DNA of 64,000 nucleotides from Clostridia bacterium (GCA_017519405.1 JAFWSH010000006.1:9284-73283), one strand, 5' to 3'; positions 9,744 to 50,154 are shown, counted from the first letter of the stretch. Numbers and translations: made by a program. Notes: a model not told the origin generated them from the sequence alone.

Positions 9744-9812
9744 GGGCACCTCCCAAAATACAAAAAGCGGCGATCTGTGTTTTGCACAAACCGCCGCCAA
9801 AGGACCTGTCGT

Positions 9813-19263: not shown

Positions 19264-19277
19264 ATCTCTTCCTCCCG

Positions 19278-34283: not shown

Positions 34284-35597
34284 TCAGAGCAGGTTGTCAT
34301 ACCCGTCTGTCAGCAGCGTATCGTCCGTCATATCCTCCAGAAGCGCCTCTTCATCCTCTTCTGTTACATCCATCTCCCAGACCTGGCTTTCTTCCTCCAG
34401 GCGTAGTTTCATCTGCCGGTGCAGATAGCTTTCGATGTGGAAGGCGTTCTTTGGATCGGAATCTGACAGATACCGGTAGTTGGGGTGTGCCGTGATGTCA
34501 TACTTGTCCGACAGGAAGGGCCGAACGCCGCGCAGCTGCAGAATGCACTTCCCGCCGTCCATCACAGCCAGCTCATCCATGGACATCAGGCTCTTGCCGA
34601 GCTTCTGGTAGTTCAAGCTGTGGGAGATTTCCCGGCCCCGGCTTTCACCGGTATTGAAGGTGTCGATGGTTTCCTTGCCCAGCAGTTCTTCCATCTCCTT
34701 CAGGGTGGTCTTTTCCTTTCCGCCCAGGAACAGCAGCGTATCGCAGTTGCCCACAATGGTATCCGCGTTGTCCTTGTAGATGGCTTTCAGCTGGGACTGG
34801 GCCTGCAAGACGATGCACGCGGAGATCTCCCGGCTGCGGATGGTGGCGATGAGCTTTTCAAAGTTCGGAATCTGTCCGATATTGGCAAACTCATCGATCA
34901 GGCACCGCACATGCACCGGGAGCCTGCCGCCGTAGACATCATCCGCCTTCTCGCAGAGCAGGTTGAACATCTGACTGTAGGCCATGCTGATCAGGAAATT
35001 GAAGCTGGCGTCCGTGTCGGACATGATCAGGAACAGGGCTGTCCGCTGGTCACCGATGGTGTCCAGGTGCAGCTCATCATAGGCGGTGATGTCCCGCAGC
35101 TCCTGAATATCGAAGACCGCCAGGCGCGCGCCGCAGCTGACGAGTATGCTCTTGGCCGTCTTGCCGGCAGCCATCCGATACTTCGCGTACTGCCTGACGG
35201 CAAAGTGCCCCGGTTTCTCCCTGGCAAGCTTTTCAAAGGCCAGATCCACCTCATTCCGGAAGTCCTCATCGTCCTCCCGGACCTCCATCTTGTTCAGCAT
35301 ATCGATCAGCTCAGAGAAGTTCTGACGCTCCGGGGGCAATTCATAATGAATGTACCCAATCAGCGCGATGTAGAGCAACGTTTCCGCCTTCACCCAGAAA
35401 TCCTCGCCGGCCTTGCCTTCACCCTTGGTATTGGAGATCAGGACCGTGACCAGCTTCAGGATGTCCTTTTCACTGTGAATGTAGGCGAAAGGATTGTAGT
35501 GCATCGACTTGCCGAAATTGATCGTATTGAAGGCGCGCACGTCATATCCGGCGGCGACCAGAAGCTTGCCGGTTTCAACGATCAGGGTCCCTTTGGG
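34284..35597 (-). pseudogene. virD4: VirD4/TraG-type coupling protein (T4CP), C-terminal 437 codons, severed from its N-terminus by the nested transposon
   Basis: Frame reads (stop TGA 35598-35600) PKGTLIVETGKLLVAAGYDVRAFNTINFGKSMHYNPFAYI...RCLIDEFANIG. There is no start codon or SD at the point where homology begins. It continues exactly from ...IVVTDPKG of the fragment at 53355-53894. Confidence 0.85.
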
Positions 35598-35874: not shown

Positions 35875-37515
35875 TTATTGTCGCTCCTGATCGTACTTTT
35901 TCTCCAGCACGGGGCTTTTCGCCACAGGCTGCTGCTCATCATCTTCCTGCGTCACCGCATCAATGGCAGCATTCATAACCTGTTCCAGCTCACGCCGGTT
36001 TTCCCGTACTTCCATCTGCTCTGAAAAGTCTTCCCGCTCCGGCAGCGCATCCGGGATCGCCTTGCGCGTCCAGTAGCGGAGCTTGCTCAGCTGATCCAGC
36101 TCTGCATGAATCTGTCCCAATTTGGGACGAAGTGATTCGTTCTGTTCTGTCAGCTCTTGCCGCTGTGCTTTCAGCTTCTTCACGCCGGCCTTGTCCAGGG
36201 GAAGGGAAACACCCAGCTTCTTCGAGAGTTTCTCGCGAAGGTAGGTTGCCTTGCGGAGCCGCTTCAGTTCATCGGCGTGTTCGGCCTGGAAGGCTTCGCG
36301 CCGGCCTTTGAAATGAATCCTGTCCAACTGATCCTGGAGAGGAGCAAGCTCTCTGTAATCCTCGATCGCTGTAAAGAAGTCATCGATATCACGAATCACT
36401 TGATTGTTGCTGCGGACATCGCCCTGCATCAGTTCAAGCTGAACCCTGGTGTTGGACAGTCGAAGCGCCAGATCTTCCACTGTAGTAATGCCGGTCTCTT
36501 TCATCAGAATGATCATCTTGGACATATCCTGCAGATCTCTGATGCCAGCCTTTTCACGTGCGTATTTACCCCAGCTCTCCCGGCCTGCTTCGCGCATGGC
36601 CCGGTAGCTGAGGATCACATCGGTCAGGGAATGAGTCTGCGGATTCTCCAGCACTTCCTGGTGGTGGATTGCTGCCATCAGTTCCGCGATCTTATCGCCC
36701 AGCTTCTTCGCTGCCCGTTTCAGAGAACCGAGAAGTCGATTGATGCTGAGAATCTCACGATTCTTTTCGCCCATCTCCGTGACGGTGCCTTTCCGCTCCA
36801 TGGCGGCTGCGGCGGGGCCGAGATGCCGTTGAGGCAGACGGTCTTCAATGCCTTGTCGCTCCAAAGAGCGCATGTCGATTCGCTCCGGCCTGCCAGCAGC
36901 TTCAAGGGCAGCGTTCTGCATCACTTCCCAGTCATGTCGCCAGATCTCGGCGTACTTGTGATCGTTCCAGTCTACAGTGTTGACGTTGCGGCGTTTCCAT
37001 TTCCCATTCTTGCCCTTGACACGGTTGCCTCGTTCATCCAGCACGTATTCCGTCCGGGTCTTATCGAGCCACTTGCCATGCTCGTCCATAGCCCGGAGAG
37101 TCAGCAGAAGATGAACATGGGGGTTGCCGTCGCCTTCGTCGTGATAGTACAGATCACAGATCATGCCTTTGCTGACAAACTCCTGCTGGCAGTAGTCCCG
37201 AATCAGCGCCAGGTTCTGCTCATACGTCAGTTCCTTCGGGAGAACAATGAGCATCCGTCGGGCCGTCTGAGCATCCTTTCTTTTCTCAGCGGCATCCACC
37301 GCATTCCAGAGTGCCTGGCTGTCAGCGTATTCCCGGGGAGCGTTGTCTGGCAGCATGACTTCCCGATAAACGACACGCTCCGGGCTGCTGTGTGGATGCT
37401 TCCATTCATGATCGCGCTCGGAGTACATTTTCTCTCCGGCGTTATAAGCTGCAGTAGCCATGACGGACTGATCTTTGCGGCCTATATACGATATGGAAAA
37501 CGTGGGACAGGGAAT
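35875..37515 (-). CDS. MobQ-type (MobA/MobL family) relaxase; first ATG at 37461 but homology starts upstream, probable ATT start at 37515
   Basis: AAYNAGEKMY (catalytic Tyr region), HDEGDGNPHVHLLLT (HxDx..NPHxH motif), long coiled-coil C-terminus. In-frame codons upstream of the ATG encode IPCPTFSISYIGRKDQSV, matching the family N-terminal strand. GGAGGTG 10 nt upstream of ATT 37513-37515. Confidence 0.8.
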   Translation of the reverse strand: MPCPTFSISYIGRKDQSVMATAAYNAGEKMYSERDHEWKHPHSSPERVVYREVMLPDNAPREYADSQALWNAVDAAEKRKDAQTARRMLIVLPKELTYEQNLALIRDYCQQEFVSKGMICDLYYHDEGDGNPHVHLLLTLRAMDEHGKWLDKTRTEYVLDERGNRVKGKNGKWKRRNVNTVDWNDHKYAEIWRHDWEVMQNAALEAAGRPERIDMRSLERQGIEDRLPQRHLGPAAAAMERKGTVTEMGEKNREILSINRLLGSLKRAAKKLGDKIAELMAAIHHQEVLENPQTHSLTDVILSYRAMREAGRESWGKYAREKAGIRDLQDMSKMIILMKETGITTVEDLALRLSNTRVQLELMQGDVRSNNQVIRDIDDFFTAIEDYRELAPLQDQLDRIHFKGRREAFQAEHADELKRLRKATYLREKLSKKLGVSLPLDKAGVKKLKAQRQELTEQNESLRPKLGQIHAELDQLSKLRYWTRKAIPDALPEREDFSEQMEVRENRRELEQVMNAAIDAVTQEDDEQQPVAKSPVLEKKYDQERQ

Positions 37516-37703: not shown

Positions 37704-38069
37704 TCAGCTTGTTGCCGAAAACCGTTCCTCCGTCCGGGTGGCCTGCGGGGCGGTCTGCGGCGTGGTCCGGGCATTCTCAAACAGCTGCTCCATGGTGATC
37801 CTGTTCTCGCCGGAGCGGATTTCCCGCATCTGGGTCAGCAGCTTCTGAATGCCGGAGAAGCTGAACACATGGTTCAGGAAAAGCTTGATGTCTTCGTCGG
37901 TGAAGACTTCAGCCTTGTCGCCCAGGTGCATGGTCAGTTCGCCGCCACGCTGATAGATACTGTGGTTGCGATCCTTCCGTGCCTGAACTTTGATCTTTTG
38001 ATCCAGTTCTGCCTTTTGTGCCTCAATGCGCTGCATCGAAGCTTTCAGCTTATCCAACTGTTTGCTCAT
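37704..38069 (-). CDS. DUF3847 domain protein (usual partner of MobA/MobL relaxases in Firmicute elements)
   Basis: MSKQLDKLKASMQRIEAQKAELDQKIKVQARKDRNHSIYQRGGELTMHLG...FLNHVF is the typical DUF3847 coiled-coil plus C-terminal segment. Confidence 0.7.
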   Translation of the reverse strand: MSKQLDKLKASMQRIEAQKAELDQKIKVQARKDRNHSIYQRGGELTMHLGDKAEVFTDEDIKLFLNHVFSFSGIQKLLTQMREIRSGENRITMEQLFENARTTPQTAPQATRTEERFSATS

Positions 38070-38164
38070 CGGAATCCTCCTTCCTCATTGATACTTTTGC
38101 TGGCCAGCAAAGGAAAAGGCACCGGCTGTTTTGATCAGTCGATGCCCTCTGCTTTGATGGCCGT

Positions 38165-38464
38165 TCAAGTGTTGGTTCTGATGCCGAGTCCTGCTGCTTT
38201 CGCTTTCTCGCTGGCCGCACTCCGTTTTTCCTCGCTCATGGGCGGGAGAAGCCGGATGGACACACGATCCTTCTGAATCTCGTACTCGGCATAGTCCGGA
38301 TACTTCTGCTTGTCAACGCGCCGGCACACTTCCGGGTATCGGGTGGCAAACTCCCGCAGGCGTCTGCGCAGGCCAGGGTCGTATGTGCAGATGGTTACGG
38401 GATCGCGGCTCTGGTTGTAGAGCAGGACGGTCTCTTTTTCGTGCTTGGTGAGACGATAGGACAT
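38165..38464 (-). CDS. Hypothetical 99-aa protein of the transposon backbone
   Basis: GGAGG 7 nt before ATG 38464. MSYRLTKHEKETVLLYNQSRDPVTICTYDPGLRRRLREFATRYPEVCRRV... Family not recognised. Confidence 0.6.
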   Translation of the reverse strand: MSYRLTKHEKETVLLYNQSRDPVTICTYDPGLRRRLREFATRYPEVCRRVDKQKYPDYAEYEIQKDRVSIRLLPPMSEEKRSAASEKAKAAGLGIRTNT

Positions 38465-38525
38465 GGGAACCTCCTATTTCGATAACTTGTTTCATTTGGC
38501 TGAAATCTCGCCAAACTAATTGCAC

Positions 38526-38716
38526 CTATTCGTTCTATTCGTTAATTGCCAAAAAGCCCTTGATACATAAGGGATTTGAGCTACTTTGAAATGCAGTTCC
38601 TTCCAGAATCGCATTTTCCACCATTATCAATATATAGGCATCAATTTAATGGCGCATACTATATGTTGTATTAAACGCCCTTGAGGAAGAAAAACAATAA
38701 CGTCGAATAGAACGAA
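38526..38716. repeat. 9-mer repeats CTATTCGTT: two tandem direct copies plus an inverted 13-nt copy 160 bp away, bracketing the AT-rich divergent control region
   Basis: CTATTCGTT at 38526-38534 and 38535-38543. CGAATAGAACGAA at 38704-38716 is the exact reverse complement of TTCGTTCTATTCG at 38529-38541. The inverted copy ends 17 nt before the -35 box. Confidence 0.7.
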
Positions 38717-38732
38717 AGCAAAAAATACATTA

Positions 38733-38761
38733 TTGACAATGTTATAGTTTACATGTATACT
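38733..38761 (+). promoter_or_regulatory. Near-consensus sigma-70/sigma-A promoter of the peptide-rSAM-UvrA operon
   Basis: TTGACA (38733-38738), 17-nt spacer, TATACT (38756-38761). 30 nt upstream of ATG 38792. Lies in the AT-rich intergenic region. Confidence 0.7.
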
Positions 38762-38791
38762 GGCATCAACCTATAGAAGGAGGTGCAGTAC

Positions 38792-38974
38792 ATGGTCTCT
38801 TATTCTGGAGATGCGTACAATGCGCTTTACGGCAACATTACCCCCACAATGATGGCTGGTCCCCGCGAGAAGTGCATGTCTCAGTGCACTGGCTGTAAGT
38901 GCAGCTGCAGCTCTAAGTGCAAGTACACTGACAATCGCCCTGAGGTTACGGACGAAGAATGGGAGGTTCTGTAA
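38792..38974 (+). CDS. Cys-rich precursor-like peptide A (60 aa, 6 Cys)
   Basis: GAAGGAGG with 8-nt spacing to ATG 38792. MVSYSGDAYNALYGNITPTMMAGPREK-CMSQCTGCKCSCSSKCK-YTDNRPEVTDEEWEVL. Layout is leader / Cys core / acidic tail. Homologous to peptide B. Confidence 0.75.
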   Translation: MVSYSGDAYNALYGNITPTMMAGPREKCMSQCTGCKCSCSSKCKYTDNRPEVTDEEWEVL

Positions 38975-38975
38975 C

Positions 38976-39140
38976 ATGAGTGCAACCACGAACGAGTATG
39001 CCCAGATGTTCGGCAACATCTCTGATATGAGCAACATCTCCATGGCAAAGTGCGCCTGTGTGAAGTGCAACTCCTGCACTTGCGCCTGCTCCTGCTCCAG
39101 GTGCAAGCGGGCTCCTGAGAAGGAGGATATCGAATGGTAA
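38976..39140 (+). CDS. Cys-rich precursor-like peptide B (54 aa, 8 Cys; below ORF-track cut-off)
   Basis: GGGAGG (38961-38966) 9 nt before ATG 38976, 1 nt after the stop of peptide A. MSATTNEYAQMFGNISDMSNISMAK-CACVKCNSCTCACSCSRCK-RAPEKEDIEW. Its TAA (39138-39140) overlaps the rSAM ATG (ATGGTAA). Confidence 0.75.
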   Translation: MSATTNEYAQMFGNISDMSNISMAKCACVKCNSCTCACSCSRCKRAPEKEDIEW

Positions 39141-40540
39141 AGCTTTCTCGCTTTGCACATGAGTATGACCTCGGTGATGCGATAGCCCTTTATCACTCGC
39201 TGAGGATGAAACCTGTGTATTTGACGAGAAAGGCTTATGAGGACTTGCAGGTGTGGCTTGCAAGTCCTCTTTGCTCTACACCCGAAAATGCACCGGAGAA
39301 TCTGACCAACGAAGTCGCTGAACTGATAAAATGCAAGGTGCTTACCAAAACGGATGATGAAGATGATAAGGTGCTCAGGTTTATCCGCTCCAGAGCACCT
39401 GTCCCCGCTATTAGTGTCTGCTACATGATTCTAAGTGAGCAGTGCAATCTGGCCTGCAAATACTGCTTCCTCGGAAACAACGATGAAGAAAAACGGCGGC
39501 AGTTCTTGCTTGAGGATATGAGTGCTGAGACAGCAGATCAGGCAATTGATTTTTTCATCAGGCAGATGAAACTTTCTGATCTGGATTTTGAAGACGCAAA
39601 TCCGGTCGTGATTTTCTATGGCGGCGAGCCAATGGTCAATTTTCCGGTACTTGTTCACATTGCTGAAAGACTCAATGCACTCAGGAGTGTTGAGAAGTGC
39701 GTTAAGAATGTCGAGATGTCCATGGTCACGAACGGATTATTGCTGACTGAAGAACGCATTCTGAAGCTCAAGGAGCTCGGCGTCTCAATTGCTATCTCTT
39801 GCGATGGTTTTACCGATGCCGCGAACAATATGCGTGTTGATCTCGGTGGAAACCCCGTCTTTGCCCGTGTGCTTAAGACTCTAGACCTTTGCAAACGCTT
39901 GGGCGTAGACGTCGCACTCTCTGTGACACTGAGTGAGGAAACAATCAAAGACACCGTGAATATTCTGAATCTTGTAGACAATTACGGTGTCAAGTCCTTT
40001 GGGTTTAACATCTTGATGTCGAGTGATACATTCGTTCTTCCGGAAAGCTACAATGAAGCAGCAGCTCAATTCATCATTGATGAGTTTGTAGAGCTTCGGA
40101 AAAAAGGCATATACGAAGACCGTATGATGCGGAAACTCGACTCTTTCTCCAAGGCGCAGGTCTATTATTCTGACTGTGCCGCAACAGCGGGCGGACAGAT
40201 CGTTGTGGCACCTAACGGCCAGGTCGGCATCTGTCATGGATGCCTGTACGATAAAAAATACTTTGTCACTTCGATTTACGATCAATCATTTGATGCCACA
40301 AAGGATCCAACGTTTATCGAGTGGTCGCAGCTTACACCGCTGAACAAAGATTGTTGTCTCGACTGCCCGGCCCTTGGAATCTGCGGCGGAGGCTGCCCGA
40401 TCAATGCGATGCACCTAAAGCCCGGCAACACGATTCATTCCGTTGACGAGCGATTCTGCGTGCATGCCAAGAAGACGCTGGATTTCTTCATCCGTGATCT
40501 ATATCGCATCATATGCGAAAGCAGGGGTAAAAATGGCTGA
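39134..40540 (+). CDS. Radical SAM / SPASM-domain peptide-modifying enzyme with N-terminal RRE-like extension
   Basis: GAGAAGGAGGA SD. CNLACKYC (CX3CX2C). C-terminal full SPASM pattern: C-X18-C with GX4C (CAATAGGQIVVAPNGQVGIC), then CLDCPALGICGGGC (CX2CX5CX3C). About 100 aa N-terminal to the rSAM core, where RiPP-recognition elements normally sit. Confidence 0.9.
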   Translation: MVKLSRFAHEYDLGDAIALYHSLRMKPVYLTRKAYEDLQVWLASPLCSTPENAPENLTNEVAELIKCKVLTKTDDEDDKVLRFIRSRAPVPAISVCYMILSEQCNLACKYCFLGNNDEEKRRQFLLEDMSAETADQAIDFFIRQMKLSDLDFEDANPVVIFYGGEPMVNFPVLVHIAERLNALRSVEKCVKNVEMSMVTNGLLLTEERILKLKELGVSIAISCDGFTDAANNMRVDLGGNPVFARVLKTLDLCKRLGVDVALSVTLSEETIKDTVNILNLVDNYGVKSFGFNILMSSDTFVLPESYNEAAAQFIIDEFVELRKKGIYEDRMMRKLDSFSKAQVYYSDCAATAGGQIVVAPNGQVGICHGCLYDKKYFVTSIYDQSFDATKDPTFIEWSQLTPLNKDCCLDCPALGICGGGCPINAMHLKPGNTIHSVDERFCVHAKKTLDFFIRDLYRIICESRGKNG

Positions 40541-42671
40541 TGTCATTCGGGTTGAAGGAATCGAAACCAACAATCTTAGAGGCCTTGATGTTGAGCTTGA
40601 AAAAAGAGCTCTTAACCTGATTATCGGGCCATCCGGTAGTGGAAAGTCATCTTTAGCATACGATACAATTGCACAGATTGGTCAGCATGAATATATGGCC
40701 ATGTTTGCTGACGATGTTGCTGAACCCTCTTACAAGGTTAAGGGGTATCACAATATGGTTGTTGCGGTGCCGATCAGACAATCTAACAGCAACAATAATA
40801 TGCACTCAACCATTGGAACGTATTTCGGTCTTAACCGGAGTATCGCTTTCATTTTTGCGTCCATGACAGGTATCCCAGAGGAGCACTTCACATTAAACCG
40901 AGCTGCTAATCTGTGCGAAAACTGTCATGGACTTGGTTTTATCAGCGTTATTGACGAAAACAGGATTATCGATTACAGCCTTCCGATCTCACAGAATCCT
41001 TTCCGATGCTGGAATAAATTCAAAGATTTCTACCGCCAGATTCTTGTCGCTTACTGCCACGATGTAGGAATTGACCCGTCAAAAACATTCCGGCAGCTGT
41101 CGGAAAAAGAAAAGCATCTGCTTCTCTATGGTGAAGGGAAGACTAAGTACAAGTTCCTCTACAAGCGAACCAACGGAACCTCACAACGTACATCCTGCTA
41201 TTATGGCATCATGACTGGGAAAGCGATGATGCCAGATTACAGTACCGCGAGCAGGTTTTATAGCGAGAGGACTTGCCCATGTTGTGGAGGTCAGAAGTAC
41301 GGAGCTGAACAACGGCAGTACCTGTTTAACGGTCTGTCAATTGGCGACTTTATGACTATGCCCTTTGCGGAACTCATCAATTTCGTAGAGGAATCAAAGA
41401 AAAAGGTAAAGGATGTTCGTATCTCTTTTGCTTTCAATAGTCTCCACTCCTTTCTGAAAAAGGCTATTGATCTAAATCTGGGGCATCTGTTCTTCCATCG
41501 CGCAATACCGACTTTGTCTGGTGGAGAATTGCAGCGCCTGAGAATGGTGCAGGTTTTTAATGCGCAGCTTTCTGATATGCTGGTTGTCCTGGATGAACCT
41601 CTGGCAGGGTTGTCGGGACGCGAGAAGAAAGCAATCTATGAAAACATCATAGCTCTCTGTGACCGTCATACTGTTCTTGTGGTCGATCATAGCGACGTGT
41701 TTGTCAGCAAAGCCCGCAGAATCTATGCTCTTGGCCCAGGTGGCGGTTCAAAGGGCGGACAGATGATTGATGCTGCTCAATATATCCAGCAAGAGAGTCA
41801 ATCGCGCTCTTTGAGTGTGTTCAAGACTGATGCTATGCTACCAATAGAGGTATCAAGTCCTGTCTATCAATATCAAGGCACCAGAATCGCGATCATGCAG
41901 TCTGCTATGAATATGATCACCGGGCCTTCCGGGGTCGGAAAATCAACACTGCTTCGTGAGTATTTCCCGCAGGTTTTTGATGAGTACTTGTATATAAACC
42001 AGAAACCAATGATGGGAAACAAAACTTCCAGTGTTATTACAGCTCTGGATCTGTTTGGAAGAATCCAGGATCTATTTGCGAAGAAAACTGGGAAAGACCG
42101 GCGTTGGTTCTCCAACCAATCCGGCTGCGATGGAGCTTGCCCGGTTTGTGGTGGCGCCGGCTACATAGAGTACGGATACGATGCCAGGACAAAATCAATA
42201 CTGCCTTGCGAAGAGTGTGAAGGAACAGGATTCAACAAAGTTCTGAAGAAATATAAGATTGATGGCAAAACCATATTTGATATATGGAACATGACCATTG
42301 ATGAAGGTATTCAGTACTTTAGAAAGCTCGACTCCAAGATCAGTACTACCTTCGAAGAAGCATCTTCAATCCTCCTGGGGCACTTGAAGATTGGGCAACC
42401 TACTTCCACTCTTTCAGGTGGAGAAAATATCCGCATCAAGATCATGAAGGCTGCCAAATCAACAGCGAAGGTTCTCGGCATTGATGAACCGTTCAAAGGG
42501 TTAAGTCCATCTGAAATATATCTTGTCGCTTCTTTCTTTGATCGCATTCGAGCGAAAGGTAAAACGATTGTCGTTGTAGATCACTCAGAGGAAGCTGAGA
42601 GATACTTTGGACACAGGATTGTATTAGCACAGAAGGACGGCATACTAATAGAATCTCGGAGACAAATATAA
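40533..42671 (+). CDS. UvrA paralog (712 aa), class II-like: both ABC ATPase modules and Zn modules present, UvrB-binding domain absent
   Basis: ATG 40533 overlaps the rSAM stop by 8 nt. VEGIETNNLRGLDVELEKRALNLIIGPSGSGKSSLAYDT (compare UvrA ..THNLKNIDLDIPR.KL.V.TGLSGSGKSSLAFDT). FTLNRAANLCENCHGLGF and CPCCGGQKY Zn module. LSGGELQRLRM. Second Walker A ITGPSGVGKSTLL. CPVCGGAGY...CEECEGTGF. LSGGENIRIKI. The segment between LLFARVG-equivalent and FSFN-equivalent that carries Zn1 plus the UvrB-binding domain in UvrA is missing. Confidence 0.85.
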   Translation: MADVIRVEGIETNNLRGLDVELEKRALNLIIGPSGSGKSSLAYDTIAQIGQHEYMAMFADDVAEPSYKVKGYHNMVVAVPIRQSNSNNNMHSTIGTYFGLNRSIAFIFASMTGIPEEHFTLNRAANLCENCHGLGFISVIDENRIIDYSLPISQNPFRCWNKFKDFYRQILVAYCHDVGIDPSKTFRQLSEKEKHLLLYGEGKTKYKFLYKRTNGTSQRTSCYYGIMTGKAMMPDYSTASRFYSERTCPCCGGQKYGAEQRQYLFNGLSIGDFMTMPFAELINFVEESKKKVKDVRISFAFNSLHSFLKKAIDLNLGHLFFHRAIPTLSGGELQRLRMVQVFNAQLSDMLVVLDEPLAGLSGREKKAIYENIIALCDRHTVLVVDHSDVFVSKARRIYALGPGGGSKGGQMIDAAQYIQQESQSRSLSVFKTDAMLPIEVSSPVYQYQGTRIAIMQSAMNMITGPSGVGKSTLLREYFPQVFDEYLYINQKPMMGNKTSSVITALDLFGRIQDLFAKKTGKDRRWFSNQSGCDGACPVCGGAGYIEYGYDARTKSILPCEECEGTGFNKVLKKYKIDGKTIFDIWNMTIDEGIQYFRKLDSKISTTFEEASSILLGHLKIGQPTSTLSGGENIRIKIMKAAKSTAKVLGIDEPFKGLSPSEIYLVASFFDRIRAKGKTIVVVDHSEEAERYFGHRIVLAQKDGILIESRRQI

Positions 42672-42720
42672 ACGCTACATGATAGACACCGGGCGCACAT
42701 CTGTAGTTGGGGGTGACGAC

Positions 42721-45714
42721 ATGGGACGTCCAGAGGACGAGCGGGTGAAAATTCCAGCCTTGCTACATCTGACAAGGCTTGGTTATAGCTACCTCTCGCT
42801 CCAGGAATGCGAGCATGACGAGGAAACCAATATCTTCCTCTCCATATTTCGCGACTCCCTGGCACAGATCAACATGCAGCCCGTAAGCGAGGAGAAGGCT
42901 GCTGACATCATCCGAGAGATTCGGAACGCCTTGGATAATGACGATCTGGGTCGTGAGTTTTTCAAGCTCCTTCAGGCTGGCTGCAGCGGGTTGAAGCTGA
43001 TTGACTTTGAGCATCCAGATCAGAATAGTTGGCATGTGGTCACTGAGCTACCCTGCAAGAGGGATCAGGACGAATTCAGGCCTGACATCACGCTGCTGAT
43101 CAACGGATTGCCGCTGGTGTTCATCGAGGTCAAACGACCCAACAATGTAGATGGCATCCAGGCTGAACGGGATCGGATGGATCGCCGGCTGAGTAATCCA
43201 AAGTTCCGGCGGTTCATCAACATGACCCAGTTGATGATCTTCTCGAACAATGGAGAATATGATGATTCCGAGACGCCTCCGCTCTCCGGCGCTTTCTATG
43301 CGACCATCGGAAAGAAGCGACTGTTCTTCAATCATTTTCGAGAGGAACAGGAAGGCCGGTTTGCGCAGATTGCGGATTTGGATCCCACGGCGGAACGGAA
43401 GATCCTGCTGGACACACATCTCCCTGCCATCAAGCACCATGCAGAGTATCTGACCAATCTGAGCCCTACCACACCGACGCACCGCATTCTCTCTTCCATG
43501 GCCAGCAGGGATCGACTGCTGTTCTTGCTGCGCTATGGTTTGGTCTATGTTGATCGGGTGAACGATAACGGCATCACGGAGACAGAGAAGCATGTGATGC
43601 GCTACCCGCAGTTGTTCGCCACGCAGGCCATTGAGAAGCGAATCTCTGATGGCGGCCGAAAAGGTGTCATCTGGCACACCCAGGGAAGCGGTAAAACAGC
43701 ATTGGCCTACTTCAATGTCCGGTACCTGTCGGACTATTTCCAGCATCAGGGAGTGATCGCCCGGTTCTACTTCATCGTGGATCGGTTGGATCTGCTTCAG
43801 CAGGCAGCGGATGAATTCCGCGCCAGAGGACTGACGGTCAACGAAGTCAATTCCAAGGATGCTTTTGAAAAGGCTTTGACACCGGTTCGGGAGAGCAGCA
43901 CCTCCGGCGGTCTCTCCATAACCGTGGTGAATATCCAGAAGTTCTCCGATGAAGCGGTAGCTCAGCCAAGTGACTACGGCCTTCGGGTACAGCGTGTGTA
44001 CTTCATGGATGAAGCGCACCGCAGCTACAATCCTAAAGGCTCATTCCTGTCTTATTTGCAGGCTTCGGACCGGCAGGCGATATGGATTGCACTGACCGGC
44101 ACTCCGCTGATCGGTGAAGGCTATAACACCAAAGATGTCTTTGGACCCTACATTCATAAATACTACTACAATGCCTCCATCAAGGATGGCTATACCCTGC
44201 GGTTGATGCGGGAGGGTATTCGCACCGAATACCGTGTGCAGATGCAAGGCGTTCTGGAGAGCATCCGCACTCTCGAGCGCTCCATTCAACGGGAAGACCT
44301 CTATGCCCATGAGAAGTATGTTCAGCCGTTGGTGCAGTATATCGTGGAGGATTTCACACAAGCCCGCGTCAGGCTTCACGATCCCTCCATCGGCGGAATG
44401 ATCATCTGCGATTCCTCCAAGCAGGCCCGGGAGGTCTTCCGGCAGATGAAGGATCTGCCGGATCTGAAGGTCGCGCTGATCCTGCACGATGAGGATGACA
44501 TCGAAACCAGAAAGCAGGAGCGTATCGACTTCAAGAAGGGCGCTATCGATATTCTGATTGTCTTCAACATGCTACTGACGGGCTTTGACGCACCTCGGCT
44601 CAAGCGGCTGTACGTAGGCAGAGTGATCAAGGATCACAACCTGCTGCAGGCGCTTACCCGTGTTAATCGACCCTATGGACAGCATCGTTTCGGCACCGTG
44701 ATTGACTTTGCCGACATCCGGAAAGAGTTCGACAAGACCAACCAGGAATACATGCGGGAGCTGCAAACGGAGCTGGGTGATGCTTTTTCCGAGTATGACA
44801 GCATCTTCATGACCGAAGATGAAATCAGGACCGCTCTGACGGCTATTGAGGACGTACTGTTCCTCTATGACCGGGTCAACATCTCTGTCTTCACGCAGCA
44901 GATCTCTGACAATGTGGGCAAACCGGAATTGCTTCAACTGCAAAAAGCTCTGACCCAGTATCGAGAAATGGCGAATGTTGCCCGGCTGTATGGCTATGAT
45001 GCCCTTGCCTCATCGTTCACCGTGAGCAACGCTTCCGCCATGCTGACCGAGGTCACTAATCGGATCAAATTGCTGAATCAGCGCGAAACGCTGGATCAAG
45101 CCGTTGATATGCAGTCTGTGCTGAACATCGCCATGGATCAGATCCAATTTGTATTCAAGCGGATCTCCAAGGATGAAATGGTCATCGCGGACAGTTACCG
45201 GGAGATGCTGGAGCGTACCCGACAGACGATGCACAGCAATCACGACCCGGACGATCCGGAGTATGTCACACTGCTGGAAGAGCTGCAACGGCTGCTGCAG
45301 AAGAAAAAGATCGAGGAACTGACCGCCGAGGAGATGCGGGAGGATATGGCCGCCCTGGATCGCATCCGGACACAAGCTGCGGAGCTCAACCGTCGGGATG
45401 CAATGCTGACCCAGCGTTACGAGAACGATCCACGCTTTATGCGCATCCATAAGCGCCTGCGGGCCAATCCGCCGCCTATCGGGAGCGATGTGCAGATCCA
45501 TCAGGTGCTGATGCGCTTGAAGCACTCAACAGATGAGAGTGTGATGATGAACAGCGGCATTCTTCGGAACGAAGCTTATTTCACTCAGGCGCTGATGCCT
45601 CAGATCATTGACGCTCTACGTTCCAGCCATCTGCCCTTCACCCTGCCGCAGGTGCAGTTTGTGGGACAAACAATCTCCCGGGAATACTTCCGTGAAAGGA
45701 CATGGGCCAGCTGA
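42721..45714 (+). CDS. hsdR: Type I restriction enzyme R subunit
   Basis: MGRPEDERVKIPALLHLTRLGYSYLS N-terminus (alternative ATG 42679). PD-(D/E)xK-like region ITLLINGLPLVFIEVKRP. Helicase motifs VIWHTQGSGKTALA and VYFMDEAHRS. Stop overlaps the hsdM start (TGATG). Confidence 0.9.
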   Translation: MGRPEDERVKIPALLHLTRLGYSYLSLQECEHDEETNIFLSIFRDSLAQINMQPVSEEKAADIIREIRNALDNDDLGREFFKLLQAGCSGLKLIDFEHPDQNSWHVVTELPCKRDQDEFRPDITLLINGLPLVFIEVKRPNNVDGIQAERDRMDRRLSNPKFRRFINMTQLMIFSNNGEYDDSETPPLSGAFYATIGKKRLFFNHFREEQEGRFAQIADLDPTAERKILLDTHLPAIKHHAEYLTNLSPTTPTHRILSSMASRDRLLFLLRYGLVYVDRVNDNGITETEKHVMRYPQLFATQAIEKRISDGGRKGVIWHTQGSGKTALAYFNVRYLSDYFQHQGVIARFYFIVDRLDLLQQAADEFRARGLTVNEVNSKDAFEKALTPVRESSTSGGLSITVVNIQKFSDEAVAQPSDYGLRVQRVYFMDEAHRSYNPKGSFLSYLQASDRQAIWIALTGTPLIGEGYNTKDVFGPYIHKYYYNASIKDGYTLRLMREGIRTEYRVQMQGVLESIRTLERSIQREDLYAHEKYVQPLVQYIVEDFTQARVRLHDPSIGGMIICDSSKQAREVFRQMKDLPDLKVALILHDEDDIETRKQERIDFKKGAIDILIVFNMLLTGFDAPRLKRLYVGRVIKDHNLLQALTRVNRPYGQHRFGTVIDFADIRKEFDKTNQEYMRELQTELGDAFSEYDSIFMTEDEIRTALTAIEDVLFLYDRVNISVFTQQISDNVGKPELLQLQKALTQYREMANVARLYGYDALASSFTVSNASAMLTEVTNRIKLLNQRETLDQAVDMQSVLNIAMDQIQFVFKRISKDEMVIADSYREMLERTRQTMHSNHDPDDPEYVTLLEELQRLLQKKKIEELTAEEMREDMAALDRIRTQAAELNRRDAMLTQRYENDPRFMRIHKRLRANPPPIGSDVQIHQVLMRLKHSTDESVMMNSGILRNEAYFTQALMPQIIDALRSSHLPFTLPQVQFVGQTISREYFRERTWAS

Positions 45715-47345
45715 TGGATACGATTGAGATTACCCGGCAAACCAAGGCCATGATTGATGGTCTGAAGACCATATGCGCCAATTTCGGCCTGGGCAATGCC
45801 GCCAGCGAATACAAGATCATAACCGAGGTTTTCCTCTACAAATTTCTGAACGACAAGTTCCTCTGGCAGGTACGGAAGGTGGTTCCAGCCCTGCAGGGGT
45901 GTACCGACGCACAGGTAGAGGAGTATCTTGCTACACTCAGCGAAGACGACTTCACGCTGATCCTCTATCAGCTGGCTCCCGACACCGCCCGTCTGCAGCG
46001 GAATCAACTCATCTCTGCTCTGTACAATCGACAGAATGAGGAGCGCTTCCATGAGCTGTTCGACACGACTCTGAAGGACATCTCCGATCAGAATCTTGAG
46101 GTCTTTTCGGTGTCGGCAGGCACATCCTCACGCATCCGTCTCTTCGGCGGCCTCTCTCAGTATGTGATTGAGGAAGAAAAGAAAGCGCCCTTCTGTCGTG
46201 CGCTGATCGGACAGCTGGTGTCGGATTCTTTCTCCGCTGTGTTCGACCAGAAGTATGATTTCTTCGCTGACATCTTCGAGTACCTGGTGAAGGATTACAA
46301 CAAGGACAGCGGTAAATACGCTGAGTACTACACGCCCCATGCCATCGCCACGATTCTGGCCCGCATCCTTGTGCGAGAACCAGTGCAGGATGTGTCCGTG
46401 TATGACCCCGCAGCAGGATCCGGCACGCTGGTGCTGGCCACCGCTCATGCCATCGGCGAGAACAAGTGCACCATCTATACCCAGGATATCAGCCAGAAAT
46501 CCAATGAATTCCTGCGCCTGAACCTGATCCTGAACAGCCTGGTGCACTCCCTGCCCAATGTAATTCATGACGATACTCTTGTGAGCCCCCGGCACCTGAA
46601 CGCCCGGGGCGATGGCATCGCCACCTTCGATTTCATCGTCAGCAATCCGCCCTTTAATATGGACTTCAGCAAAACCCGGGATCAGCTGGCTGGTGAAGCC
46701 TACAAAGCCCGCTTCTTCGCCGGGGTTCCAAATATCCCCAACAAGAAGCTGGACAGCATGGCTGTCTACCAGATGTTCCTGCAGCACATCATCGTCTCCC
46801 TGAATGAGCACGGAAAGGCAGCGGTAGTAGTTCCGACAGGCTTTCTGACTGCCGGTAGCGGCATCCCGCTGAATATTCGTCAGCGCCTGGTGGATCATCA
46901 CTGGCTCCGTGGCGTTGTGAGCATGCCAAGCAATATCTTTGCCAATACCGGCACCAACGTTTCCGTGGTGTTCATCGATAAGGATCATACCGGGGACGTC
47001 ATCCTGATGGATGCCAGTAAGCTGGGCAGTAAGGTCAAGGTGGATGACAACCAGCGAACCGTCCTTTCCGACGAGGAGATTGAACGGATCATCACCGCAT
47101 TCAACGCTGGAGAACCTATCGAAGATTTCTGCGTTGTCGTCAGTGAGGAGCAGATCAAAGAAAAGAAATACAGCTTCTCCGCCGGGCAGTATTTCGAGGT
47201 GAAGATTGAGTACGTGAACCTGACCCCGGCCGAATTTGCGGAGAAAATGCAGGACTACCAGTCCCGGTTGCAGGCAATGTTTGAGGATGGACATCGGCTG
47301 GAGGCAGAGATTATGGAGCAGTTGGGGCGGGTGAAATATGAATAA
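45714..47345 (+). CDS. hsdM: Type I R-M N6-adenine DNA methyltransferase subunit
   Basis: VYDPAAGSGTLVL (SAM-binding motif I), IVSNPPFNMDF (NPPF motif IV), HsdM-N-like N-terminus (ITEVFLYKFLNDKF). Alternative ATG at 45702. Confidence 0.9.
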   Translation: MDTIEITRQTKAMIDGLKTICANFGLGNAASEYKIITEVFLYKFLNDKFLWQVRKVVPALQGCTDAQVEEYLATLSEDDFTLILYQLAPDTARLQRNQLISALYNRQNEERFHELFDTTLKDISDQNLEVFSVSAGTSSRIRLFGGLSQYVIEEEKKAPFCRALIGQLVSDSFSAVFDQKYDFFADIFEYLVKDYNKDSGKYAEYYTPHAIATILARILVREPVQDVSVYDPAAGSGTLVLATAHAIGENKCTIYTQDISQKSNEFLRLNLILNSLVHSLPNVIHDDTLVSPRHLNARGDGIATFDFIVSNPPFNMDFSKTRDQLAGEAYKARFFAGVPNIPNKKLDSMAVYQMFLQHIIVSLNEHGKAAVVVPTGFLTAGSGIPLNIRQRLVDHHWLRGVVSMPSNIFANTGTNVSVVFIDKDHTGDVILMDASKLGSKVKVDDNQRTVLSDEEIERIITAFNAGEPIEDFCVVVSEEQIKEKKYSFSAGQYFEVKIEYVNLTPAEFAEKMQDYQSRLQAMFEDGHRLEAEIMEQLGRVKYE

Positions 47346-48585
47346 AGTCAAGCTTATAGATATATGTGATGACTTGAGCGATGGACTCCATGCTGCCCCC
47401 GTTTTTAATCCTCAAGGGGAATACCTTTTTGTGAATGCTATCAATCTCGAAAATGGATATATCATTGACACAGGGGATGGGAAGCGCGCTGATTATTCCG
47501 AATATGTAAAATACAGGATTGACTTGAATGACAGAACAATACTGTATTCAATTGATGGTACAATCGGAAAGATAGCGCGATATCGTGGTGAAAAAGTCAT
47601 TCTGGGAAAAGGGGCTTGTTATATCAAGCTTAAAGAGACTGTAAATGCTGATTACATCTATTACTTACTCCAATCATCTATATTTCAAGCATACTTAAAA
47701 AGCATGACCACAGGTTCGACAATACACCATATATCACTCGAAACTATGCGGAACTTTAGCTTTGCATTACCGGATCGGGTAATTCAAGATTGTATTGCTA
47801 AAGTTCTATTAGTCATAGATCAGAAAATCGATCTTAATACTCGCATCTGTACTGAGCTGGAATCCATGGCCCGCACCCTCTATGACTACTGGTTTGTGCA
47901 GTTTGATTTCCCGGATGAAAACGGCAAGCCCTACCGCAGCAGCGGCGGGGAAATGATGTGGTGCCAGGAGCTGGGGCGTGAGGTGCCGAAGGGATGGAAG
48001 TTGGGGACAATTGGTGACCTGGGAGAGGTTGTTTCAGGAGCCACCCCTTCAACAACAGAAGACAGTTATTATACTGATAGCGGTATAGCTTGGATTACTC
48101 CGAATGACCTCTCAAACAATGGACAAAACATGTTCATTGCTCATGGTGAAAGAGATATTACAGAAGCCGGATTACAAAGCTGCTCTTCTGTACTCATGCC
48201 AGAAGGCAGCGTTCTGATGAGTTCCAGAGCTCCTATTGGATATCTTGCAATTGCCGCAAATGACGCATGTACAAACCAGGGATTCAAATCTATCATCTGC
48301 AATAAGGGATTTCTGTCTCTGTATGTTTACTATACGCTAAAGAGAAATGTGGATGGAATTGCAAGGCAGGGGGTCGGCACCACCTTCAAAGAGGTATCGA
48401 GAGAAGCGCTTACAAGGTACCCTGTTCTTCTCCCGCCACAATGTATCGCTGAAAGATTTGAATACCTACTGCAACCAGTAGGAAAAGCGCGGCTAAAGTG
48501 CGAGCAGGAAGCAAGCGAATTAGTTCATCTCCGCGACTGGCTCCTGCCGATGCTGATGAACGGGCAAGCAAAGGTGGTACTATAA
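47338..48585 (+). CDS. hsdS: Type I R-M specificity subunit (two target-recognition domains)
   Basis: ATG overlaps the hsdM stop by 8 nt. Two TRDs separated by the conserved helix LNTRICTELESMARTLYDYWFVQFDFPDENGKPY, and C-terminal conserved helix CEQEASELVHLRDWLLPMLMNGQ. Confidence 0.9.
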   Translation: MNKVKLIDICDDLSDGLHAAPVFNPQGEYLFVNAINLENGYIIDTGDGKRADYSEYVKYRIDLNDRTILYSIDGTIGKIARYRGEKVILGKGACYIKLKETVNADYIYYLLQSSIFQAYLKSMTTGSTIHHISLETMRNFSFALPDRVIQDCIAKVLLVIDQKIDLNTRICTELESMARTLYDYWFVQFDFPDENGKPYRSSGGEMMWCQELGREVPKGWKLGTIGDLGEVVSGATPSTTEDSYYTDSGIAWITPNDLSNNGQNMFIAHGERDITEAGLQSCSSVLMPEGSVLMSSRAPIGYLAIAANDACTNQGFKSIICNKGFLSLYVYYTLKRNVDGIARQGVGTTFKEVSREALTRYPVLLPPQCIAERFEYLLQPVGKARLKCEQEASELVHLRDWLLPMLMNGQAKVVL

Positions 48586-48608
48586 AACAGAAAGCGAGGA
48601 AAGAATTC

Positions 48609-48995
48609 ATGGAAAGAGATATGGATTTGGTTCGTCTGATCCTGCTGGAAATCGAGAAAGAGTACAAATCAACAGTCCTTTATGATTTGAAGATCGATGG
48701 CTATGACATGGAAACGGTAGCCTATCATTGCAAAATACTTCATGAGGCAAAACTGATTTCAGCATATAAAGGCATGTATGCCGATAATGCCCTTCAGGAC
48801 TTCGCAGTAGGATCTCTTACATGGGAAGGTCATGACTATCTTGATAAAGTTCGTGACAACAGCCGTTGGGGAAAGATAAAGAAATTACTGAAGGAGAAGA
48901 CCCTCCCGCCAACAATTGAGGTTATCAAAATGCTGGCTGATGGTCTGATCAGCGCTGCAACTGCCGCTGCTGTCAGCAGTATTACCGGGGCATAA
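48609..48995 (+). CDS. DUF2513 domain protein
   Basis: GAGGA 9 nt before ATG 48609. MDLVRLILLEIEKEYKSTVLYDLKIDGYDMETVAYHCKILHEAKLISA....SLTWEGHDYLDKVRD is typical DUF2513 (winged-helix-like). Confidence 0.75.
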   Translation: MERDMDLVRLILLEIEKEYKSTVLYDLKIDGYDMETVAYHCKILHEAKLISAYKGMYADNALQDFAVGSLTWEGHDYLDKVRDNSRWGKIKKLLKEKTLPPTIEVIKMLADGLISAATAAAVSSITGA

Positions 48996-49055
48996 CAGAA
49001 ATATTCCTTTATCAGTTTTGAATGGCGTAGAGGCGGCACTCTCCAACAAGTGTTG

Positions 49056-49325
49056 TTAATCCAGCGCCCACTCCACGCCTTCCTCGTCATCCATCCATTC
49101 TTGTGAATCAACCAGCGCTTCAACGCCCACACTGAGTTCCCCAAAGGGTTTCGATCCATCATACGCCGGCTCCACACAGACAACCTGTGTGGGGCCGTTT
49201 CTGCGCCAGTTCAAATCATCATATCCGTTGCGCTCCATGGCGATCTCCACGGCTTCCTCTTCGCTCTCTGCTTCGATAGCGTCCTCAAATACCAACTGCC
49301 GGCACAAAGTCACGTTCCACATCAT
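49056..49325 (-). CDS. Hypothetical acidic 89-aa protein (transposon backbone)
   Basis: Start overlaps the upstream stop. Composition is normal. Family not recognised. Confidence 0.5.
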   Translation of the reverse strand: MMWNVTLCRQLVFEDAIEAESEEEAVEIAMERNGYDDLNWRRNGPTQVVCVEPAYDGSKPFGELSVGVEALVDSQEWMDDEEGVEWALD

Positions 49326-49762
49326 GTTTTTTCCGTCTCCTTCCTGCCAGTGGGAGTGGCGTTTCGATTGAGCAGCTTCAGTAAAATATCCTGATGTACG
49401 CCTTGCAAAATGAACTTGGAAATCAGATTGCTGTCGGTGTTACGGGCAACAAGTACATGCTTCCGGTATTCGTCCTCAAAGTCGGGATCATCGAGTGAGG
49501 GCAGTTCATCGCAGACACGGCGATTCCGCAGATACCTCTTGGCCTTCCGGTCAAACCCTCTCAGATACTGCATGAGCATCCTGGACTTTTCCAGACTTTT
49601 TAGCTGGTCTGGATGTGCCATACGAAGGTACAGGTAGTGCAAGGTGCCGTATTCGCTAATTCCTTTAAGCTCGGGCAGTTCAGGGCTGTAGGGAATGTAG
49701 ATGCTTCCGCAGAGGCGGTAGTTGATGCCGTTGATGGTGACGTTCTTCTTCATTTTCGTCAT
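49322..49762 (-). CDS. Hypothetical 146-aa protein, distantly TnpV-like N-terminal pattern
   Basis: AAGGAG 9 nt before ATG 49762. INGINYRLCGSIYIPYSPELPELKGISEYGTLHYLYLRMAHPDQLKSLEKSRMLMQYL loosely parallels the TnpV G.YY.PDL....KP.G..G....YL....P pattern. Confidence 0.55.
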   Translation of the reverse strand: MTKMKKNVTINGINYRLCGSIYIPYSPELPELKGISEYGTLHYLYLRMAHPDQLKSLEKSRMLMQYLRGFDRKAKRYLRNRRVCDELPSLDDPDFEDEYRKHVLVARNTDSNLISKFILQGVHQDILLKLLNRNATPTGRKETEKT

Positions 49763-49851
49763 GTTGATCTCTCCTTGTGTTTATGGGAATGGAAAAGCCG
49801 CCTCCGAAGAAGCGGCTGGGTGACAAAGTGGGTGTTAAACCGGGTGATAAA

Positions 49852-50154
49852 TCAGGCTGTGATGAAGTCCAGCACTCTGTACAGCAGGTCGGCGGCTTTG
49901 CCGATGATCCAGCTGGCAAGGTGCGGTGCTGCCAAAAGGAACAGGCCCAGGCCCAGACATTGATACGCCATTGCCGATGGAGCACCGGCAATCCACTCGA
50001 TGGCGGCACCAAAAATGAACAGCCCTGCGACCAGGTTTGTGACCATAGAACCGATCCCGATCACGATGGCACAGGCCGCATGACACAGGAACAGTGCCAG
50101 GGCCGCGGGCATGGCAATCAGCTTCAACGGCAGTCTGATGATGCGTCTGATCAT
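49852..50154 (-). CDS. Small integral membrane protein, paralog of 9813-10103
   Basis: AGGAGG 7 nt before ATG 50154. MIRRIIRLPLKLIAMPAALALFLCHAACAIVIGIGSMVTNLVAGLFIFGAAIEWIAGAP... The longer 137-aa track ORF has no SD. Confidence 0.65.
   Translation of the reverse strand: MIRRIIRLPLKLIAMPAALALFLCHAACAIVIGIGSMVTNLVAGLFIFGAAIEWIAGAPSAMAYQCLGLGLFLLAAPHLASWIIGKAADLLYRVLDFITA

Follow-up and report, generated by a model that had tools for sequence, protein, structure and literature searches.

A UvrA-like ATPase without the UvrB-binding domain is a near-obligate partner of the FibroRumin peptide-maturation cassette

The DNA analysed here, a 64,000-nucleotide stretch from a Clostridia bacterium (GCA_017519405.1, JAFWSH010000006.1:9284-73283; hereafter the window), carries a small operon with genes for two cysteine-rich precursor peptides, a radical S-adenosylmethionine (SAM)/SPASM peptide maturase and a 712-aa UvrA-like ATP-binding cassette (ABC) ATPase. 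By its profile matches, the operon is a FibroRumin system for peptides that are made on ribosomes and modified after translation (RiPPs), as catalogued by NCBIfam (TIGR04135/TIGR04136) and Pfam (PF27848). The catalogue names the peptides and the maturase only and leaves the ATPase out of the definition; the new observation here is that the UvrA-like ATPase is a near-obligate third component of the FibroRumin cassette. An earlier note on this DNA had called a UvrA paralog fused into a RiPP-like operon unusual and had read it as a sign either of a DNA-directed peptide or of a DNA-lesion/distortion sensor recruited into a mobile system, and either of these may hold. The ATPase is, however, a separate open reading frame (ORF), and its place as third gene is conserved in a widespread cassette (55 of 57 and 31 of 33 loci, counted from the ATPase and from the maturase, respectively).

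Conservation of the gene linkage

A single ATPase-anchored scan of GTDB, with one genome for each species, yielded 68 loci with 47-99% identical proteins, and four weaker rows were non-members. These loci are distributed among Bacillota, Synergistota, Fibrobacterota, Actinomycetota, Spirochaetota, Verrucomicrobiota, Bacteroidota and Campylobacterota. A peptide maturase adjoins the ATPase in 55 of the 57 loci with a judgeable flank. Most of these (43/57) have a FibroRumin radical SAM gene directly upstream together with one to four precursor genes, nine have a ~385-aa PapB/CXXX-like radical SAM gene with precursors reading ...GCGCTGNCGQSCSGGCETGCSGNCGRSCS, and three have an MvdC/MvdD-like ATP-grasp peptide maturase gene after the ATPase, so that orphan ATPases without a maturase are found at only two loci. 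In 43 of 49 loci, the end of the maturase gene overlaps the start of the ATPase gene or is separated from it by at most 30 nt. From the other side, in metagenome contigs anchored on the maturase, the ATPase gene lies directly downstream of 31 of the 33 intact FibroRumin-type genes whose downstream sequence was long enough, and the adjacency is thereby conserved in both directions.

Apart from the ATPase, the maturase and the peptides, all-against-all clustering of neighbours revealed no conserved gene; serine recombinases and genes of a small mobilisable element came next in frequency. The cassette is carried by ICEs (integrative conjugative elements), plasmids, small mobilisable elements and defence/mobile islands in at least eight phyla. 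Selenomonas sputigena ATCC 33150, Ruminococcus albus 8 and Fretibacterium fastidiosum are among its natural carriers. A Campylobacter plasmid holds all four genes, of which PGAP names the peptides and the maturase and leaves the ATPase as 'hypothetical protein', and a 99%-identical copy of the window cassette is present in a human-gut 'Clostridiales' metagenome-assembled genome. No family member was found in 2.9 million IMG/VR contigs, and the phage GenBank set contained only generic UvrA-like matches of 24-28% identity.

Cassette genes and expression signals

The features of the cassette are as follows (positions counted from the first letter of the window).

38733-38761, plus strand: promoter-like site, TTGACA-17-TATACT, upstream of pepA (consensus match only, 11/12 positions)
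38792-38974, plus strand: pepA, 60-aa Cys-rich A-type precursor, MVSYSGDAYNALYGNI...CMSQCTGCKCSCSSKC...EEWEVL (ATG at 38792, 7 nt after AGGAGG)
38976-39140, plus strand: pepB, 54-aa Cys-rich B-type precursor, MSATTNEYAQMFGNI...AKCACVKCNSCTCACSCSRC...EDIEW (TIGR04135 FibroRuminTarg, 72.8 bits, cutoff 45)
39134-40540, plus strand: radical SAM/SPASM peptide maturase, 468 aa (TIGR04136 FibroRumin maturase, 806 bits, cutoff 400)
39239-39269, plus strand: terminator-like hairpin and T-run inside the maturase ORF, codons ~36-46 (12-14-bp stem, dG -26.5 kcal/mol, z -4.0)
40533-42671, plus strand: UvrA-like ABC ATPase of class II architecture, 712 aa (ORF, profile, alignment, AlphaFold2 (AF2) and motif evidence)
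40842-40940, plus strand: junction of the missing Zn1/UvrB-binding domain, IAFIFASMTG followed by IPEEHFTLNRAANLCENCHGLGF (alignments to Thermotoga maritima UvrA and a 971-aa canonical UvrA)
40914-41285, plus strand: Zn module 2 around the insertion/DNA-binding domain, CENC 128-131 (C128, C131) and CPCC 248-251 (C248, C251)
42138-42218, plus strand: Zn module 3, CPVC 536-539 (C536, C539) and CEEC 559-562 (C559, C562)

The promoter-like site is the best-scoring one within 38300-49200. A 63-aa version of PepA starting at GTG scores 36.9 bits on TIGR04135, under the cutoff of 45. The pepB stop overlaps the maturase start (ATGGTAA), and the maturase covers positions 1-457 of the 458 in the TIGR04136 profile, with an invariant CxxxCxxC motif and eight further invariant Cys; Pfam Radical_SAM was also matched. 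Although the enzyme resembles the PapB/SCIFF-type ranthipeptide and sactipeptide maturases in being a SPASM enzyme for Cys-rich cores, its match to the PapB ranthipeptide maturase, the second-best family, reaches only 129.6 bits and falls far under the cutoff of 340. The maturase TGA (40538-40540) and the ATPase ATG (40533) give an 8-nt overlap with the sequence ATGGCTGA, and AGGGG lies 6 nt upstream of the ATPase ATG, which bears out the operonic arrangement described in the earlier note. No GAAC-N4-GTTC box suggestive of SOS control occurs near the cassette (two matches elsewhere in the window versus 0.86 expected), and Rfam gave no match anywhere in the window.

Architecture of the UvrA-like ATPase

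The ATPase starts with MADVIRV, in agreement with all homologues and with a 100%-identical 712-aa database protein; a longer ORF from a TTG at 40443 was listed by ORF calling and is unsupported by the homologues. Both nucleotide-binding domains (NBDs) match Pfam ABC_tran and contain complete motifs, namely Walker A (GPSGSGKSS, residues 32-40; GPSGVGKST, 464-472), signature (LSGGEL, 328-333; LSGGEN, 627-632), Walker B (VVLDEP, 351-356, DE 354-355; LGIDEP, 648-653, DE 651-652) and H-loop (VVDHS, 383-387 with H386 and 681-685 with H684). Residues 141-228 match PF17755 UvrA_DNA-bind (E = 2.4e-14). The two Walker A sites, the two signatures and the Zn2 and Zn3 motifs named in the earlier note could all be located, and these, together with the Walker B and H-loop motifs, are without variation in the alignment of 42 homologues.

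The absence of the UvrB-binding/Zn1 domain was also corroborated by alignment. Against T. maritima UvrA, residues 5-108 and 115-412 of the ATPase correspond to 4-112 and 263-550, leaving ~150 aa absent, and the multiple alignment with the 971-aa canonical UvrA places a ~175-aa gap exactly between IAFIFASMTG and IPEEHFTLN. The missing part therefore amounts to ~150-175 aa rather than the ~130 aa given before. The boundary of the deletion is identical in all RiPP-linked and Ecm16-type short UvrAs. In line with this, the ATPase scores 335.6 bits on canonical UvrA TIGR00630 (cutoff 729.8), skipping profile positions ~115-260, and 304.2 bits on NF001503 (cutoff 1147), which places it outside canonical UvrA. 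With two intact NBDs, Zn2, Zn3 and the insertion domain kept and Zn1 and the UvrB-binding domain lost, the protein agrees with the definition of class II UvrA-type proteins (PMC10192343), as had been proposed; the term 'class II UvrA' also appears in the title of bioRxiv 10.1101/2022.02.02.478902. From the absent domain, we infer that the ATPase would not be expected to load UvrB.

The AF2 model (pLDDT 87.5), in which the Zn2/insertion region is folded, pointed in the same direction, with Foldseek TM-scores up to 0.85 against UvrA, UvrA2 and Ecm16. The canonical UvrAs, damage sensors of nucleotide excision repair, share the ATPase cores, Zn2, Zn3 and the insertion domain (TMq 0.83-0.85, Bacillus stearothermophilus UvrA; E = 4e-75 to 3pih) and differ by the ~150-175-aa domain. 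Deinococcus radiodurans UvrA2 (PDB 2VF7; E = 4e-57, TMq 0.74) has the same domain deletion and the same fold, but is a stand-alone gene without a peptide cassette and is farther from the window ATPase than canonical T. maritima UvrA is. Ecm16 (PDB 7SH1; E = 4.5e-74) and DrrC-type proteins are tandem ABC proteins of the same domain composition and, like the window ATPase, are encoded inside biosynthetic clusters; the TM-score normalised on Ecm16 is 0.82-0.83 (rmsd 3.2-3.3 Å). However, identity to Ecm16 is only ~24% (253 bits), the window protein has 712 aa versus 744-755 aa in the Ecm16 type, its NBD-II RSNPATY motif is altered, and its partners are ribosomal Cys-rich peptides in anaerobes rather than nonribosomal peptide synthetase or polyketide synthase intercalators in actinomycetes.

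A separate clade of RiPP-linked ATPases

In a search of 1.84 billion cluster representatives, the family formed a single full-length 50%-identity cluster, followed by proteins of 715-745 aa at 31-39% identity. In a neighbor-joining tree, which is distance-based, has one canonical outgroup and comprises neither DrrC nor DrUvrA2, the RiPP-linked ATPases constitute one clade (100/100 bootstrap) sister to the Ecm16 type. The Ecm16-type genes in the tree are stand-alone, without peptide genes around them, and come from Streptomyces, Deinococcus, Clostridium and Staphylococcus plasmids. Streptomyces and Deinococcus Ecm16-type proteins score 805-1086 bits to Ecm16 versus 253 for the window ATPase, which thus stands outside the clade with the characterised members, and it is not a close relative of DrrC, Ecm16 and UvrA2, with which the earlier note had grouped it. 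The separate clade for which the earlier note had proposed to look was recovered; it is dedicated to peptide cassettes and is mostly mobile-borne.

Beyond FibroRumin, other peptide chemistries accompany the same clade. The sister sub-clade L039-L049 (48-52% identity; e.g., L041, 592-4162) has upstream a radical SAM enzyme of ~385 aa that is PapB/CXXX-like, falls below every NCBIfam cutoff and starts directly at CxxxCxxC without an N-terminal leader-recognition extension; its precursors read ..YYASGCGCTGNCGQSCSGGCETGCSGNCGRSCSGSGS. Three loci (L045, 5146-8464; L063; L067) have the MvdC/MvdD-like ATP-grasp maturase downstream of the ATPase, with peptides that are not Cys-rich. An 81-aa Thr/Ser/Asp/Glu-rich ORF lies next at L045 and is a possible graspetide precursor. 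Peptide cassettes also surround all seven more distant relatives with readable context. L079, L080 and L084 (34-39% identity) have very basic three-Cys peptides (..RCQRSQCRTTHKRKDC) and an StsB-like radical SAM enzyme, with a SAM methyltransferase in addition at L079 and L084, and one further type combines a CXXX-like peptide with a PapB-like radical SAM enzyme. L077 (Acinetobacter johnsonii pXBB1-8) and L085-L087 encode ATPases of 706-741 aa, preceded by two ThiF-family enzymes and by a peptide of the form ..GCSGSRSDCCTRTCTR...NAGV(L/I)QY. The Acinetobacter copy lies beside BrxL, and others beside HD-CE/HATPase_c_3 and VapE-like genes. At least five peptide chemistries are hence represented in the clade: FibroRumin, CXXX-like, graspetide-like, basic sactipeptide-like and ThiF-dependent.

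To our knowledge, class II UvrAs have so far been described in two settings only, as paralogues that stand alone and as determinants of resistance to the DNA intercalators of actinomycetes. The present clade is a separate, widespread and previously unnamed UvrA-like group dedicated to RiPPs; it has no family model of its own, and the current database labels of the ATPase are 'hypothetical protein', 'excinuclease' and 'ATP-binding cassette domain-containing protein'. One genome-mining paper lists 'RiPPs' among the classes of actinomycete biosynthetic gene clusters with uvrA-like genes and does not take the point further.

Precursor peptides and a hairpin within the maturase gene

The peptide inventory was based on a scan for Cys-rich ORFs together with NCBIfam. 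A-type peptides, present in more than 40 loci, follow the pattern ..AYxxMLGNI....CISQCTGCMCNCRCSCSGG..D(V/F)(D/E)WEE(M/L), and B-type peptides follow MSAN..EYAKMFG.I....MARCACVACNSCTCACSCR.IP..EI(E/D)W, both of which are kept across phyla. The cores are near-invariant from Gram-positive through diderm hosts. No double-glycine leader was found in the FibroRumin precursors. Some genomes (L029, L032, L034-L038) encode one precursor in which the B- and A-type Cys motifs are fused (..AKCNCTACNSCACGRCSGCISQCTGC..).

About 100 nt past the precursor genes, the terminator-like hairpin occupies the same codons (..E-D-L-Q-A-W-L-A-S-P..) in nearly all FibroRumin maturase genes. In the alignment, 97% of cells are paired, whereas slid controls pair at 30-58%; cells with double changes number 47 versus 13.8 ± 7.4 after shuffling, with none of 500 shuffles as high. 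Compensatory pairs are found at columns 18-42 (AU 23, GC 20) and 19-41 (GC 21, AU 19). Because the amino acids encoded by the two arms co-vary (ED..SP versus ES..SS), selection acts on the nucleic acid. The likeliest role of the hairpin would be that of a leaky terminator or attenuator, or of a structure stabilising the precursor mRNA, by which more precursor than enzyme could be made.

The mobile element and its cargo

The placement of the locus on a mobile element, proposed in the earlier note, was supported, the cassette being part of the cargo of an ICE. The backbone includes a MobA/MobL relaxase, a type IV secretion system (T4SS) coupling protein, a VirB4-like ATPase, TrbL/VirB6 and a CD1107-like protein, as well as NlpC/P60, topoisomerase III, a 2408-aa SNF2 protein and a large serine recombinase. 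Most of the cargo (38001-50000) has a G+C content of 46-50%, with 54% in 44-46 kb, which is below the 55-60% of the flanking backbone and suggests that the cassette and the neighbouring restriction-modification (R-M) genes were acquired from a donor of lower G+C.

42679-48585, plus strand: type I R-M genes hsdR, hsdM and hsdS (Pfam HSDR_N, ResIII, N6_Mtase, Methylase_S)

The first hsdR ATG lies 8 nt past the ATPase stop, with no strong terminator predicted in between; hsdRMS may be co-transcribed from the cassette promoter. As a component of the cassette, the type I R-M system was ruled out, its adjacency not being conserved at other loci. A DUF2513 gene follows hsdRMS, extending the block to 42679-48995 on the plus strand. 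The features that follow are all on the minus strand. The coupling-protein ORF (34284-35540) has only 418 aa and matches T4SS-DNA_transf at profile positions 99-442; its N-terminus may be lost or frameshifted, in which case the ICE may be conjugation-defective. Two different relaxases, MobA/VirD2-type and MobA/MobL, are encoded at 8340-9800 and 35875-37461, and the window may hold two nested or tandem mobile elements. The only Pfam signal of the 2408-aa ORF (12055-19281) is a weak one for an SNF2/ResIII helicase, located in the C-terminal third.

Possible function of the cassette

The reading that we put forward, tentatively and as something short of probable, is that the modified peptides act on DNA inside the cell and that the ATPase protects the host chromosome from them. 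A strong promoter would give high expression of both precursors, and a leaky terminator ~100 nt into the maturase gene would pass only some transcripts to the maturase and the overlapping ATPase gene. The maturase would cross-link the Cys-rich cores, probably as thioethers. The products would be retained in the cell, because the cassette has neither an exporter nor a leader protease, and would target DNA or something bound to it. A dimer of the ATPase, with its two ATPase sites, insertion domains and Zn modules, would recognise peptide-loaded or distorted DNA and clear or tolerate it without nucleotide excision repair, as is thought for Ecm16 and DrrC with intercalators, the outcome being a protected host chromosome. 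The precedent is Ecm16, which confers resistance to a DNA-binding compound (PMC10192343, PMC9328131); its echinomycin resistance is UvrB-independent, its binding of DNA depends on the insertion domain, and its ATPase activity is stimulated by drug-bound DNA (PMC10192343). By analogy with such systems we infer the DNA binding of the ATPase, the thioether chemistry, the intracellular action, the DNA target and the protective role.

Several observations are in agreement with this proposal. It is favoured by the class II fold with its invariant ATPase and Zn motifs, by the tight two-way gene linkage and by the lack of a recurrent transporter or peptidase among the neighbours. The rarity of orphan ATPases (2/57 loci) argues against a freely diffusible weapon, and the near-invariance of the peptide cores across phyla, diderm hosts included, suggests a conserved intracellular target. 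The association of one ATPase clade with at least five unrelated peptide chemistries parallels the DrrC/Ecm16-type proteins, which serve chemically different DNA binders, and the strongly basic partner peptides of the RCQRSQCRTTHKRKDC family likewise support an action on DNA.

Other observations weigh against the proposal. The FibroRumin peptides themselves are not notably basic and, with their acidic EWE-type tails, are not obviously DNA-philic. The B. stearothermophilus UvrA residues K680 and R691, which are reported to contact DNA, align by our numbering to E484 and N496 of the ATPase, and the NBD-II motif GRTPRSNPATY has become GN(K/V)xSxVxT. Between cassette types, the insertion domain has an identity of 0.45, compared with 0.44-0.61 for the other folded domains and 0.25 for the variable inter-NBD linker; without excess divergence in this domain, the specificity signal predicted from Ecm16 is not seen. 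Transfer of function from Ecm16 is also a long reach, the ATPase being outside its clade. Two of the 33 maturase-anchored loci (L115 and L116, with 55-58% identical maturases) have a GNAT-like and a large kinase-like protein in place of the ATPase. In the collection of papers searched, none mentioned FibroRumin or a link between UvrA and RiPPs. L116 has a long Cys-rich precursor, and L115 and L116 resemble an alternative partner set.

For the element, the gain could lie in defence against phages or plasmids, with addiction and competition with neighbours as alternatives. As an anti-phage or anti-plasmid module, the cassette would produce peptides that block foreign DNA or its transcription, with an ATPase that clears host DNA or targets the peptides to DNA. 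This explanation, which we regard as unlikely but the least so of the alternatives, overlaps the proposal of host-chromosome protection and differs in placing the selective benefit in immunity to invaders. It is favoured by the type I R-M system immediately after the cassette, by individual copies beside BREX plus DUF2357/PDDEXK_7, BrxL, an HsdR fragment or HD-CE/HATPase_c_3, and by the lack of a recurrent exporter. A scan of 136 immediate neighbours with Pfam and PADLOC also detected AbiLi (3), AriA (3), DrmD (2), GajA (2), AbiE, AbiD and MzaB. Nevertheless, these are raw counts without a background-controlled enrichment, and many of the neighbours are simply genes of mobile elements (Mob_Pre, recombinases, IS or Mu transposases) or of housekeeping functions such as the trp operon.

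No specific PADLOC system was matched either, so that identity with a catalogued defence system was rejected. The mad3 match of the ATPase (136 bits in four short stretches) reflects generic ABC similarity, an unrelated AAA_15-type neighbour giving a MAD3 match of the same kind, and no other mad genes are near the ATPase in the window; identity with Mad3 of MADS was therefore discarded. There is a precedent in Streptomyces, whose defence islands include lanthipeptide clusters that guard the host against phages and change how phage genes are transcribed (bioRxiv 10.1101/2024.06.26.600839). These class I clusters, or lanthiphages, resemble the present cassette as RiPP clusters near defence systems for which an intracellular or antiviral role is proposed, but they differ in chemistry, enzymes and hosts, have no UvrA-like partner, and have an anti-phage function shown experimentally, whereas the window cassette is known from sequence alone. 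A combined version, a mobile 'chemical immunity' in which incoming phage or plasmid genomes would be blocked by cross-linked intracellular peptides bound to DNA, with a dedicated UvrB-independent ATPase to free the host chromosome of them and with the clade re-used for at least five chemistries, would be rather improbable as a whole.

The main rival outside DNA is a biosynthetic or chaperone role, in which the ATPase, as an ATP-driven clamp, would present, release or scaffold the peptides or pass them to an unlinked exporter. The translational coupling and the near 1:1 gene linkage fit such a handling factor, as do the CXXX-like radical SAM partners of ~385 aa lacking a leader-recognition extension and the changes at some canonical DNA-contact positions. 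We consider it doubtful, given that the protein keeps its insertion (DNA-binding) domain as well as both Zn modules, with invariant residues, and that the same ATPase clade serves radical SAM, ATP-grasp and ThiF enzymes, which have no common mechanism; moreover, we know of no soluble UvrA-type ABC protein that acts on peptides.

A secreted bacteriocin with an intracellular immunity protein is similarly hard to credit. Precursors, a maturase and a resistance-type gene form the classical layout, the mobile carriage in dense gut, rumen and oral communities would suit the killing of neighbours without the element, and export and leader cleavage could be left to unlinked host functions or lysis; MatE and EamA transporters even occur twice each among the neighbours. 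However, no exporter, transporter or peptidase recurs in ~60 loci or is present in the window cassette, a double-glycine-type leader is missing, orphan immunity genes are rare (the same 2/57 loci), and the cores are near-invariant from Gram-positive to diderm hosts, unlike those of fast-diversifying bacteriocins. A LanFEG/LanT-like immunity or export ABC protein was likewise rejected, with no permease or C39 peptidase partner in the window or recurrently elsewhere. Least probable is a post-segregational addiction module of the mobile element, pairing a very stable cross-linked DNA-directed peptide toxin with a less stable ATPase antidote, which would accord with the Campylobacter plasmid cassette among RelE/ParE and HicAB toxin-antitoxin pairs, with carriage on ICEs, small mobilisable elements and plasmids and with the missing exporter, but not with the chromosomal copies in stable housekeeping contexts in many samples or with the unusual cost of a 712-aa antidote.

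Implications

Our results supply a corrected annotation for a UvrA-like ATPase clade that hardly ever occurs apart from a peptide-modification cassette and that extends over at least eight phyla, mostly in host-associated anaerobes and mostly on mobile DNA. They give orphan RiPP families, including FibroRumin and CXXX-like, a candidate cellular target in DNA, and offer a compact four-gene system in which UvrB-independent UvrA action could be studied with a genetically encoded ligand. Furthermore, they raise the testable possibility that ICEs of the human gut carry RiPP-based defence or addiction modules. If the chemical-immunity idea were true, these cassettes would represent the first DNA-directed radical SAM RiPPs and, in anaerobes of the gut, mouth and rumen, a defence system based on RiPPs.

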